Shown here in pieces: positions 11,380 through 60,451 of a DNA stretch of 64,000 nucleotides. The stretch lies in sequence record OQ417969.1. One strand, 5' to 3'. Within the stretch, counting starts at the first letter, position 1; each line of letters starts with the position of its first letter. Origin of the DNA: Mycobacterium phage prophiT37-1. The position numbers and the translations under genes are program-made. The notes beneath the pieces are model-generated. The model was not told where the DNA came from. It saw only the letters and a list, made by a program, of their open reading frames with translations, and ran no database searches.

Positions 11380-11395
11380 GTATAGCGCACTATAC
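11380..11395. promoter_or_regulatory. 16-bp palindromic operator/promoter motif GTATAGCGCACTATAC (site 1)
   Basis: Inverted repeat GTATAG-N4-CTATAC 10 bp upstream of the minus-strand BrnT start. The minus-strand reading gives TATACATT as a -10-like element. Confidence 0.6.
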
Positions 11396-11427
11396 GAACG
11401 AACAAGCCGTAACGGCCTTGCTTATGT

Positions 11428-11443
11428 GTATAGCGCTGTATAC
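11428..11443. promoter_or_regulatory. 16-bp palindromic motif GTATAGCGCTGTATAC (site 2, one mismatch)
   Basis: 10 bp upstream of the 11454 ATG. Together with site 1 forms a symmetric divergent control region; both flanks read tgagtcATG. Confidence 0.55.
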
Positions 11444-11453
11444 GTTTTGAGTC

Positions 11454-11783
11454 ATGAAAAGCCTTTATGTAAAACGTATTGCCGTCATTGGCGCCGCCAT
11501 AGCCGCCCTAACGGCACTCCCAACTGCCACCGCTTCCGCGTTCCCCGACCGTTGCCTGTACGCCGCGACAGACGCCAAGACCTGCCTGGGTGCCCGACCG
11601 GCACCCTTCACGCCAGCAGGCGGCGGCGGATACAAGCCCCCGGAGGACCCGGAATGCCCCGAGGGCCAGCACCATCCACCTACAGCTCCTGGCGCGGGCG
11701 AGACTGGAGGTAACAGCGCTGGTAGCGGGTCTGCCGGTAGCGGTGGGTCCTCGGCGAGTGGAGGGGCTGGTACCGGACGGTGA
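11454..11783 (+). CDS. secreted Gly/Ser/Pro-rich protein
   Basis: Signal-peptide-like N-terminus (VIGAAIAALTALPTATASA) followed by low-complexity G/S/P sequence. Confidence 0.45.
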   Translation: MKSLYVKRIAVIGAAIAALTALPTATASAFPDRCLYAATDAKTCLGARPAPFTPAGGGGYKPPEDPECPEGQHHPPTAPGAGETGGNSAGSGSAGSGGSSASGGAGTGR

Positions 11784-11837
11784 TGGTCGCGGCTACCGAG
11801 CGGCTATACAGCCAAGCCCCAATCCTGTTGCCGCACC

Positions 11838-11855
11838 GCTATACCGCGGTATAGC
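11838..11855. promoter_or_regulatory. everted 18-bp perfect palindrome GCTATACCGCGGTATAGC upstream of the ncRNA array
   Basis: Same half-sites as the 16-bp motif but in CTATAC...GTATAG order. A second CTATAC lies in a GGCTATACAGCC hairpin at 11802-11813. Confidence 0.45.
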
Positions 11856-11886
11856 TTCGTTTACAGACAACAAAACAGCGGACGAC

Positions 11887-12010
11887 GTGAACAGGATGCA
11901 GGTCGGTTATCTCGGGGTACGCCCCCGTAGTTCAAGTTAGAACGCCCCGAGCCAAGCGGGGAAATGGATCCAAACCCGCCCAGCGCCAACCACGTTCACG
12001 TCGTTCCCCA
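11887..12010 (+). ncRNA. Y-RNA-like repeat unit 1 (degenerate)
   Basis: Shares the 5' motif GTGAACAGGATGCAGGTCGGTTAT and the 3' ...CACGTTCAC tail with units 2-6. Internal hairpins present but no clear T-arm. Confidence 0.35.
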
Positions 12011-12036
12011 GACCACAACTACATAGACACCAGGTG

Positions 12037-58723: not shown

Positions 58724-59460
58724 CGGGCGCCCTCACGGCGCTCCTAACTCTGACCGTTGTTGGATGCCAGCAACCGGATACACCCTCGCCACAGCCACCG
58801 GAAGACAAGCAGCAGTACACATTCCGATGGATACCCAACCCAAGCCTGGACCTCATGTCTCCCGAAGGCACCTTCGTCCGCGCCATCTCCGAGTCATACT
58901 GGAGCGCGGGCCTCTCCTACCGCAACGGGAGATTGGCCTTAGCGGATAAGGGGTATCCCGGGGTCGAACACGCCGAGAACAATGTTTTCGATGGAGGGGA
59001 CCTCGGGTACTTGGGAGGCGACCCCAGTCAGCCCGTCGTTGTCGGCACGAGATATTACGAAGTGGTGGATTTCCGCCGTGACGGTGCACGCTATACCGCG
59101 ACAGTCTGCGACTACTCTGGCCAGACCGCGCAGAAGGAACGCGACGGGAGCTACGGCAGCCGCGGCTCGACTCCGACCGGCATCACCAAGGTGTACACCT
59201 TCGGCCCCGATCCATCGCTGACACCCGATCAACAACACGCCCCACCCGCTCAGCAGCGCGGCCCCGCACGGCGGCCCACAGACGACGTCTTCGGGACCTG
59301 GCTCCTGTTCGAGGAACCGCGCGTTAGTGACGAACAACGCCGCGTATGCAACAAGCTCGCACCAGGTACGCCCCCAGATTGGCCCGACATCTACAGGCGT
59401 TCAGAGCCACCTCCAACCTTGCCGCCAGACCCCGGATGGCCCGAGGGTAGTTCGGCGTAG
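58705..59460 (+). CDS. lipoprotein (candidate immunity protein)
   Basis: Internal ATG at 58705 gives a signal peptide and lipobox LTVVGC. Overlaps the toxin-like gene end by 19 nt. Confidence 0.45.
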   Translation: MATNRIAGALTALLTLTVVGCQQPDTPSPQPPEDKQQYTFRWIPNPSLDLMSPEGTFVRAISESYWSAGLSYRNGRLALADKGYPGVEHAENNVFDGGDLGYLGGDPSQPVVVGTRYYEVVDFRRDGARYTATVCDYSGQTAQKERDGSYGSRGSTPTGITKVYTFGPDPSLTPDQQHAPPAQQRGPARRPTDDVFGTWLLFEEPRVSDEQRRVCNKLAPGTPPDWPDIYRRSEPPPTLPPDPGWPEGSSA

Positions 59461-59465
59461 AGCGT

Positions 59466-59915
59466 TCAGCAGCCCGCAGCGTCGGCTAGCTCGCGCTGTC
59501 TGTCGGTCCGCTGTGTTGGTGCCGTTGCGCAAGCCCGGTCTACCTCCCGGCCGCCGCGGTTGTTGTTGGACTGTGCTTGGTTGACCCGCTCTAGGCGGGT
59601 TGGGCACACGTAGCGCATCCCGCGCCGGACGATGGCCATGGTGCCGTCGGTGTCGGCGGCGATCATCGACTCGAATTCGTCGACGGTCTTGTCGCAGTTG
59701 GCCACGGTCAGCTCGTACAGGCGCGCCATGTCGGGTGACGCCTCCGGGCTGGAGGCCATGATCTCGGCCTCCCATCCACTCATGTCGACGGCCGCCTGGG
59801 GCAGTATCGCTGGCCTCTGCGGCACGGTGGCCGTCGCTTCCTGCCCCGTCCCACCGCTGCACCCCGCTGTCACGGCCGCTGCAACCGCCATGTACAGCCC
59901 CCACCTAATACTCAT
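59466..59915 (-). CDS. lipoprotein
   Basis: Signal peptide with VTAGC lipobox. Convergent with the 58705 gene. Its upstream region holds palindrome site 5. Confidence 0.45.
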   Translation of the reverse strand: MSIRWGLYMAVAAAVTAGCSGGTGQEATATVPQRPAILPQAAVDMSGWEAEIMASSPEASPDMARLYELTVANCDKTVDEFESMIAADTDGTMAIVRRGMRYVCPTRLERVNQAQSNNNRGGREVDRACATAPTQRTDRQRELADAAGC

Positions 59916-59979
59916 GGCCGAACTTTAAACCGGGGTATCCGCGATAAGGGGGCGTTGACGATAAACCTCTCGACACAAC

Positions 59980-59995
59980 GTATAGCACGCTATAC
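59980..59995. promoter_or_regulatory. 16-bp palindromic motif GTATAGCACGCTATAC (site 5) with TTGACG -35-like box at 59955-59960
   Basis: Sits in the divergent region between the minus lipoprotein gene and the 60038 gene. Confidence 0.55.
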
Positions 59996-60037
59996 GTTCA
60001 AGCAGGATCGCCAGCGAACACTAGGGAAGGTCTCACC

Positions 60038-60355
60038 ATGTCAATTGCAAGCACTGCAATCACACTGACTGCGGACGAGCTGGATGCGGTCAGCCGCTCC
60101 ATGCTTGTTCACGAACCGCACTCGGACGTACGTCCGGCATTCGACTGGGTCGGCCGGGGTCACCTGCCGCCGTGCCTGGCCTACCGCGGCGACCGTGTCG
60201 TCGAGTTCGGATACGAGGTCGCGGTGGTAGTGGCGGCCCGGCGGGGAGGTGGCGACGTCGATGCGATCCGTAGGGCCATCGAATCCCTCGGGCCTTGTCA
60301 TCGGCAGGGCCGTATCCACTTCTGGCCCCGCGTGATTCCCGCGGTTGCCGACTGA
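60038..60355 (+). CDS. hypothetical protein
   Basis: agggaagg RBS. ORF track. Confidence 0.4.
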   Translation: MSIASTAITLTADELDAVSRSMLVHEPHSDVRPAFDWVGRGHLPPCLAYRGDRVVEFGYEVAVVVAARRGGGDVDAIRRAIESLGPCHRQGRIHFWPRVIPAVAD

Positions 60356-60435
60356 ATCCTCCTGGTTACTTCTCACCCCCGTCCCATGTGGGCGGGGGTG
60401 ATTTCTTTTTCTTCGTGCTCATGCTTGCCTAAAAC

Positions 60436-60451
60436 GTATAGTGCGCTATAC
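60436..60451. promoter_or_regulatory. 16-bp palindromic motif GTATAGTGCGCTATAC (site 6) with TTGCCT -35-like box at 60425-60430
   Basis: -35 TTGCCT, 16-18 bp spacer, -10 TATACA/TACATT. The palindrome spans the spacer and the -10. Sits 43 bp before the 60494 start. Confidence 0.6.

Follow-up and report, generated by a model that had tools for sequence, protein, structure and literature searches.

A 16-bp palindrome within six cargo promoters of a cluster MabK prophage of Mycobacterium abscessus as a candidate operator for a small phage-encoded repressor

The control of promoters through an operator and its repressor is a well-known kind of system, and several described examples serve as a frame for a palindrome, GTATAG-N4-CTATAC, that recurs at six promoters in a 64,000-nucleotide stretch of Mycobacterium phage prophiT37-1 (OQ417969.1; this whole stretch is referred to as the window). 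The window represents the right-hand 64 kb of a cluster MabK prophage of Mycobacterium abscessus, and the six sites (S1 to S6, from left to right) stand in front of cargo genes. We lean towards the reading that they constitute the operator of one dimeric phage-encoded repressor, most likely a 73-aa protein (p73), which would control the cargo jointly and apart from the immunity repressor. The sites resemble lambdoid cI/Cro operators (16-17 bp palindromes over the -35 and -10 elements) in consisting of two 6-bp half-sites one helical turn apart, in lying over the core promoter and in occurring several times per genome. Lambdoid operators are read by a small helix-turn-helix (HTH) dimer, as is proposed here for the MabK sites. 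Unlike lambdoid operators, the MabK sites lie outside the immunity region, are single rather than tandem like OR1-3, and occur on scattered cargo promoters rather than at PR/PL. Palindromes of this type are also present in low-GC sequences: an IMG/VR metagenomic contig of 46% GC from an unrelated phage (L017) carries GTATAGTTGACTATAC in its switch region, at 5929-5944 and 6163-6178, between LexA-like cI repressor, Cro-like XRE and excisionase-like genes, and other low-GC contigs (L042/L087 and L101) repeat the same palindrome type.

Mycobacteriophages themselves provide two further comparisons. The stoperators of clusters A and MabJ are asymmetric, 13-14 bp long, present in 14-30+ copies and oriented with transcription; they are bound by the immunity repressor and mostly block elongation (PMC9934374). 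Both systems would use one phage repressor and many dispersed sites in short intergenic regions, but the MabK sites are symmetric, 16 bp long, six in number and all located inside promoters, and thus differ from stoperators in each of these features. Cluster O phages contain a 17-bp palindrome, TGTTCGG-N3-CCGAACA, in more than 30 copies, many of them intragenic and not tied to predicted SigA promoters, whose binder is unknown (PMC4351075). It shares with the MabK motif the unchanging arms around a centre that varies, and the recurrence along a mycobacteriophage genome, whereas there are only a few MabK sites, each in the same fixed position within a promoter. Closest in logic to the MabK layout are RptR and the controller (C) proteins of restriction-modification systems, in which the regulator gene lies right behind its operator. 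RptR is an HTH homodimer of ~80 aa whose gene stands first in an accessory/defence island, and it represses the promoter of that island, a toxin-antitoxin module included (PMC12255303). No sequence or structural homology of p73 to C proteins or RptR was detected. The BrnTA family, autoregulated by its RHH antitoxin, likewise has a palindrome over the toxin-antitoxin promoter (GTAT-N3-ATAC in full-length BrnA homologues); the MabK locus differs in that the RHH domain has been lost and the operator is common to five promoters of other genes. What is new here is the motif itself, its dedication to cargo promoters apart from immunity, and a toxin-antitoxin module without its own DNA-binding domain. 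Literature searches with sequence words and for MabK regulation found no description of the motif or of a regulon; the palindrome is not mentioned in PMC8092301 or PMC9934374, where the term operator is used for MabJ stoperators only.

The cargo of M. abscessus prophages, which comprises toxin-antitoxin systems, secreted proteins and polymorphic-toxin/immunity genes, is believed to influence virulence and phage resistance. A close relative of the window is prophiGD43A-5 (MW584167), with ~93-94% identity across most of the 64 kb; this cluster MabK prophage of M. abscessus has integration-dependent immunity (PMC8092301). On the left the window starts ~13.8 kb inside the prophage, and its right end (region 63740-64000) coincides exactly with attR, located in the 3' end of a host tRNA. 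The stretch from the integrase gene to attR corresponds to a prophiGD43A-5 segment where the annotation places the 3' part of the immunity repressor gene, a gene that is split by integration.

An exact search of the window for GTATAGNNNNCTATAC (GTATAG-N4-CTATAC) returned five matches, at 11380, 14890, 55813, 59980 and 60436; the 55813 site is the perfect palindrome GTATAGCGCGCTATAC. No exact match appeared in any of 100 dinucleotide-preserving shuffles, and an analytic estimate from base composition gives about 7e-4 exact sites expected per 64 kb. A search with mismatches added the site at 11428 (GTATAGCGCTGTATAC, one mismatch, with GTATAC in the right half) and a weak two-mismatch match at 11849, against a chance expectation of 0.31 per window at up to two mismatches; at three mismatches the motif count in the window was not significant. 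The six positions listed in the initial annotation of this DNA are therefore correct, with five exact sites and one carrying a single mismatch. All six sites lie between genes, and each is followed, 9-45 nt further on, by a start codon in the fitting orientation. The motif also occupies the orthologous positions of prophiGD43A-5 and of some ten MabK-type contigs, drawn from IMG/VR and from NCBI/Logan assemblies. In a pattern scan of IMG/VR, high-GC matches in promoters came from MabK-type sequences only; other high-GC singletons appeared chance-like, and the one examined (L093) was intragenic. A blastn search of the S6 promoter against GenBank phages matched prophiGD43A-5 alone, and prophiGD36-2, another M. 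abscessus prophage, contained no motif site.

Mycobacterial SigA promoters follow the -10 rule TANNNT, and in leaderless transcripts the start codon, which is also the transcription start, lies about 6-8 nt downstream without a Shine-Dalgarno (SD) sequence. The predicted promoters around the six sites are as follows.

S1, 11380..11395, minus strand: -35 TTGTTC (11400-11405), -10 TACATT (11377-11382), ATG at 11369, 7 nt past the -10; predicted leaderless; BrnT operon
S2, 11428..11443, plus strand: GTATAGCGCTGTATAC, one mismatch; -35 TTGCTT (11418-11423), -10 TACGTT (11441-11446), ATG at 11454, 7 nt past the -10; predicted leaderless
S3, 14890..14905, plus strand: -35 TCGACA (14880-14885), 17-nt spacer, -10 TACAGT (14903-14908), ATG at 14916, 7 nt past the -10; predicted leaderless
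S4, 55813..55828, plus strand: perfect palindrome GTATAGCGCGCTATAC; -35 TTGCCT (55799-55804), 19-nt spacer, -10 TATACT (55824-55829), ATG at 55836, 6 nt past the -10; predicted leaderless
S5, 59980..59995, plus strand: -35 TCGACA (59970-59975), -10 TACGTT (59993-59998), predicted leader of ~33 nt with SD GGGAAGG
S6, 60436..60451, plus strand: -35 TTGCCT (60426-60431), -10 TACATT (60449-60454), predicted leader of ~33 nt with SD AGGAGG

Five of the promoters (S1-S3, S5 and S6) share one register, in which the -35 hexamer ends 4 nt ahead of the palindrome, the palindrome occupies the 17-nt spacer, and the -10 is TACNNT, made up of the final TAC of the palindrome and the next 3 nt (motif positions 14-19). 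S4 is the exception, with its 19-nt spacer and TATACT as the -10. The initial annotation had read the right half-site plus 1-2 nt as the -10 (TATACA/G/T) throughout, which applies to TATACT at 55813 only; elsewhere TAC plus NNT fits both TANNNT and leaderless spacing. Of the -35 boxes it proposed, TTGCCT was recovered at 55813 and 60436, while the TTGACG assigned to 59980 (59955-59960) lies 32 nt from the -10 and gives way to the 17-nt-spaced TCGACA. The TANNNT hexamer, the ATG 6-8 nt downstream and the lack of an SD are found together at S1-S4, and these promoters are predicted to be leaderless, whereas S5 and S6 have predicted SD leaders; the earlier view that several sites are leaderless thus holds for four of them, with ATG 6-7 nt after the -10. 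A generic promoter scan flagged S3 alone (9/12), the other sites reaching 8/12 by hand count.

Several features of the surroundings concern the independence and origin of these promoters. A terminator-like hairpin at 55757-55780 followed by TTTT (read by eye) lies directly upstream of S4, and a strong terminator at 60373-60401 directly upstream of S6, so S4 and S6 should start independent transcription units. The S1 and S2 promoters are inverted copies of a single module, set back to back, and each finishes in tgagtcATG; S3 ends with the same tail in several relatives, and this common tail indicates that the promoter module has been duplicated. An additional element keeps the same register:

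11839..11854, plus strand: 'everted' palindrome CTATAC-CGCG-GTATAG, between a TTGCCG box and TAGCTT, upstream of a Y-RNA-like array and a Ro60 gene; conserved

This everted copy, with a lone extra CTATAC nearby at 11804, may represent either a variant operator/promoter or a hairpin that weakly terminates the preceding gene for a G/S-rich protein. A role of the palindrome at the RNA level was considered and rejected, as the palindrome lies upstream of the predicted transcription starts and the everted copy folds to a 7-bp hairpin only (z = -1.8).

To measure conservation, variability was counted over 37 distinct oriented site contexts in MabK relatives, each cell representing one site class at one position. 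The numbers of variable cells were:

half-sites: 1 of 72
N4: 8 of 24
linker from -35 to motif: 11 of 24
7 nt following the -10: 19 of 42
3 nt that complete the -10 hexamer: 0 of 18
-35 hexamer: 5 of 36

Compared with N4 and neighbouring non-coding positions (70/210 variable), the half-sites are strongly depleted in variation (Fisher p = 1e-9), and by this comparison purifying selection acts far more strongly on the palindrome than on the sequence around it. The same pattern extends to a divergent lineage (L128/L134), which was reached through P0004, a p73 homologue of 55% identity, and which shows 66-79% nucleotide identity. At S4-S6 this lineage retains 36 of 36 half-site bases, against 72% identity in the 40-nt flanks, and the BrnT locus of L134 contains an exact S1 together with a one-mismatch partner site. 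All of the comparative evidence comes from one phage cluster (MabK) and a single sister lineage that has diverged from it. Although it serves no promoter function, the left half-site is as invariant as the right, which argues for a symmetric protein ligand. In L134 (Logan SRR14746710), at 560-760, the S2-equivalent promoter drives a homologue of a 129-aa protein rather than a secreted protein; in the window the 129-aa protein belongs to the 60436 operon, and cargo has therefore been shuffled among copies of one promoter module. A conserved promoter with variable cargo behind it is what would be expected of a portable control module.

The most suggestive regulator gene in the window stands next to the perfect palindrome:

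55836..56057, plus strand: p73, a 73-aa protein with a basic helix and an HTH, directly behind S4

p73 matches PHROG 686, 'HTH DNA binding protein' (E 6e-6). Its AF2 model, of four helices with a pLDDT of 86, has predicted structural neighbours that include the DNA-binding domains of ParB, KorB and DnaA. The protein is restricted to the same prophage group as the motif, and the core of its recognition helix, A(R/K)DA(E/K)V-RD-IYKI, is shared by P0004, which comes from a phage that has retained the operator; a genome-collection scan with P0004 returned no match. An operator over the regulator's own promoter with the regulator gene immediately behind is the layout seen at S4 and p73, and it is conserved in all relatives, including that with the 55%-identical homologue. 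On this circumstantial evidence p73 appears to be the best candidate; its identification as the regulator is tentative and, in our view, possible rather than probable. The initial annotation had named two regulators within the window, the 55836 product and the HTH protein encoded at 14515. The former is the better candidate, given its position behind the perfect palindrome and its HTH match, and the latter was rejected: in phages of Gordonia and M. smegmatis its homologues are invariably found behind Ro60, with no motif within 4 kb. A protein encoded beside the integrase was rejected as well:

62124-62714, minus strand: integrase-adjacent protein of 196 aa; the prophiGD43A-5 version has 98 aa and is annotated 'TetR-like'; the two are related over the first ~97 residues only (59% identity)

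Many other M. abscessus prophages encode its N-terminal domain, prophiGD36-2 contains no site, and Pfam and PDB searches gave no TetR support.

Taken together, these observations suggest a mechanism in which a symmetric, dimeric DNA-binding protein would bind GTATAG-N4-CTATAC, and it is highly probable that the palindrome is an operator embedded in the promoters. With a start ~7 nt past the -10, the palindrome would span about -25 to -10, a position characteristic of repressors that keep RNA polymerase off the promoter. A dimer sitting there would stand in the way of the polymerase, and from this promoter geometry we consider that the binding protein probably acts as a repressor. Produced from its own S4 promoter, p73 would then be negatively autoregulated, which would keep expression of all six units low and buffered, and prophage cargo would be wired to one switch, separate from that of the immunity repressor. 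According to the RNA-seq text of PMC8092301, lysogens do not express most of prophiGD43A-5 apart from the toxin-immunity locus, which fits repression of near-consensus cargo promoters. The initial annotation had described a single-regulator regulon with operators overlapping promoters. The fixed promoter register, the selection on the palindrome and the discrete non-core units behind the sites uphold this description, while its inclusion of the toxin cassette is not reliable and its alternative of the immunity repressor is disfavoured.

Several points weigh against a p73-centred repressor circuit. The direction of regulation is deduced from promoter geometry alone, and the 19-nt spacer leaves room for MerR-like activation at S4; the 19-20 bp spacer with palindrome of MerR-type promoters is found there only, the other five promoters having 17-nt spacers. 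p73 and the motif co-occur within one cluster, in which all genes co-occur, so that their link is one of adjacency and not an independent phylogenetic association. Distant p73 homologues (P0006, P0008 and P0010) have no comparable palindrome upstream. Furthermore, the left 14 kb of the prophage lie beyond the window, and the corresponding region of prophiGD43A-5 encodes several other DNA-binding proteins.

This last point leads to the explanation that we regard as the strongest competitor, though still an unlikely one, in which the palindrome is bound by another phage-encoded DNA-binding protein, such as early-lytic homologues of prophiGD43A-5 gp3, gp11, gp36, gp46 or gp80, with the cargo turned off or on in lytic growth. 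At least six further DNA-binding/HTH proteins are annotated in prophiGD43A-5, the restriction of the motif to MabK would suit any MabK-specific factor, and p73 is tied to the sites by adjacency only; but none of the other genes adjoins a site, gp46 belongs to the widespread PHROG 1969 whereas the motif is not widespread, and a perfect palindrome exactly on p73's own promoter is the classic layout of an autoregulator. Binding by a host (Mycobacteroides) transcription factor, which would plug the cargo into a host regulon, is less likely again. Prophage morons are often host-regulated, which is a general point with nothing direct for MabK, and the site of a host factor should have been exploited by several prophage clusters, whereas in phage collections the motif occurs in promoter context in MabK-type prophages only and is missing from prophiGD36-2. 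We also know of no mycobacterial regulator with a GTATAG-N4-CTATAC consensus.

Control by the immunity repressor, with the sites as early lytic promoters held off in the lysogen, had been put forward in the initial annotation as its alternative and now seems very improbable. The XRE-type cI/cro switch of L017 uses the same type of 16-mer, so that this class of repressor can read such sites, and the lysogen silence described in the RNA-seq text of PMC8092301 would be accounted for. The repressor/cro intergenic region of prophiGD43A-5 (140-470), however, contains TGCGCA-type repeats and no GTATAG site, no site is present in its positions 1-25000 at up to two mismatches, and the genes behind the sites are cargo (toxin-antitoxin, secreted and immunity-like) rather than replication or early functions. 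There is very little to recommend the notion that no protein binds and that the sites are six copies of a duplicated promoter module in which the palindrome is a passenger or a bidirectional -10. The tgagtcATG tail does show module duplication, and the TATA-containing half-sites resemble -10 elements on both strands. Duplication nevertheless leaves the invariance of the left half-site unexplained while N4, the -35-to-motif linker and the leader diverge; at S1/S2, where transcription has to run both ways, each direction has a site of its own; and at S5 the minus strand offers only a weak -35-like match, gp113 having its own leaderless -10 near its ATG. The faintest prospect is that regulation is due to the BrnA-like antitoxin, alone or in complex with the toxin, and that its operator has spread to other promoters. 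S1 does overlap the BrnT promoter, and where BrnA homologues are full-length, BrnT is preceded by a GTAT-N3-ATAC palindrome whose outer GTAT/ATAC tetramers are common to both motifs, but the MabK antitoxin is without the C-terminal RHH domain that Pfam finds in the M. avium and Gordonia proteins.

The six promoters head separate non-core units, with no core replication, structural or lysis gene among them, and the initial claim that each site fronts an accessory gene cassette is sound apart from the toxin cassette and one domain label discussed below. The S1 operon (10918..11369) reads on the minus strand, S2 drives a secreted protein, and the S3 cassette, originally placed at 14916-17120, extends to 21362:

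11118-11369, minus strand: BrnT-like toxin, S1 operon
about 10918-11124, minus strand: short BrnA-like antitoxin without an RHH DNA-binding domain, S1 operon
11454-11783, plus strand: small secreted G/S-rich protein with signal peptide, driven by S2
14916-21362, plus strand: S3 unit of nine genes, ~6.4 kb, including DUF7736, DUF5642 and SUKH-1 proteins; ends at a convergent gene (21374-21940)
60038-60355, plus strand: 105-aa protein, driven by S5
60494-61678, plus strand: 394-aa protein, PHROG 1362, driven by S6
61675-62064, plus strand: 129-aa protein, PHROG 6105, second gene driven by S6

The toxin-antitoxin pair bears directly on the proposed circuit. The MabK antitoxin (64-67 aa) aligns only to the N-terminal part of full-length BrnA homologues from M. 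avium and a Gordonia phage. Pfam places RHH_3/RHH_1 in the C-terminal part of the M. avium homologue and NikA-like plus weak RHH_1 matches in the Gordonia homologue; a Pfam search of the MabK antitoxin gave no RHH match, and the protein ends ahead of that region. Without an RHH domain the pair should be unable to autoregulate in the usual way, and the module appears to have outsourced its transcriptional control. Leaderless geometry favours the BrnT start at ATG 11369 (11367-11369); prophiGD43A-5 annotates a GTG 9 nt downstream (11358-11360). The G/S-rich gene is conserved in relatives and unannotated in prophiGD43A-5 (L001, about 25416-25750); in the Gordonia phages Eyre and PhrostedPhlake a gene for a small secreted protein also adjoins the BrnT/BrnA pair.

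Gene content of the S3 unit varies among relatives and differs from that of prophiGD43A-5. Its part at 17172-21362, which encodes proteins of 444 and 513 aa, a DUF5642 protein and an immunity-type SUKH-1 (SMI1/KNR4) protein, has little or no counterpart in prophiGD43A-5 and may represent a second toxin/immunity-like cargo block. The 105-aa gene behind S5 has 34 of its 53 variable alignment columns at codon position 3 of the plus frame, and PGAP calls a plus-strand gene in relatives; the minus-strand gp114 annotated in prophiGD43A-5 is probably a mis-annotation. The 394-aa protein behind S6 had been called DUF932-like, a label that finds no Pfam support, and a genome-collection scan with this protein returned no match. 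PADLOC and NCBIfam assigned no function to the cargo genes. A polymorphic-toxin cassette pointing rightward has been described for prophiT37-1 (PMC9934374). The cassette in the window is related to one in prophiFSAT01-1, with homology beginning exactly at the WXG start codon (56142). Its inclusion in the regulon, as first suggested, is not reliable, since the prophiGD43A-5 cassette is on the opposite strand with its own upstream region; a neighbouring lipoprotein gene has its own leaderless -10.

Two other regions were noted. Y-RNA-like (YrlA)/tRNA-like units form an array at 11880-12750, ahead of the gene for a Ro60 (TROVE plus vWA) orthologue (12781-14508). Rfam YrlA matches there score 28-39 bits, short of the gathering score (69). 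A match to the tRNA model covers 12110-12267 and contains an insert of 99 nt, and ARAGORN found no tRNA in the array; the equivalent place in prophiGD43A-5 has an annotated tRNA-Thr. At 22395-22470, in the long gap ahead of the gene block leading to the terminase, a conserved near-palindrome, GTATCACGTGTTATAC, is identical in prophiGD43A-5; behind it, at 22443-22470, comes a strong hairpin resembling a terminator (read by eye).

With one easily mutated 16-bp operator common to six cargo promoters, this system offers a direct experimental handle and an example of cargo control uncoupled from the lysis-lysogeny switch. As leaderless mycobacterial promoters that bring their own operator, this small and conserved group could also serve as a genetic tool. 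In its fullest form, which we put forward as a speculation and judge rather unlikely as a whole, the picture is of a second MabK circuit independent of immunity, in which a 73-aa HTH autorepressor would gate all cargo islands through a portable promoter-operator module, including a toxin-antitoxin pair whose antitoxin gave up its DNA-binding domain. If this is true, prophage fitness, defence and virulence cargo in M. abscessus would be switched on together by a signal that relieves the repressor, and new cargo would gain the same control by landing behind a copy of the module.

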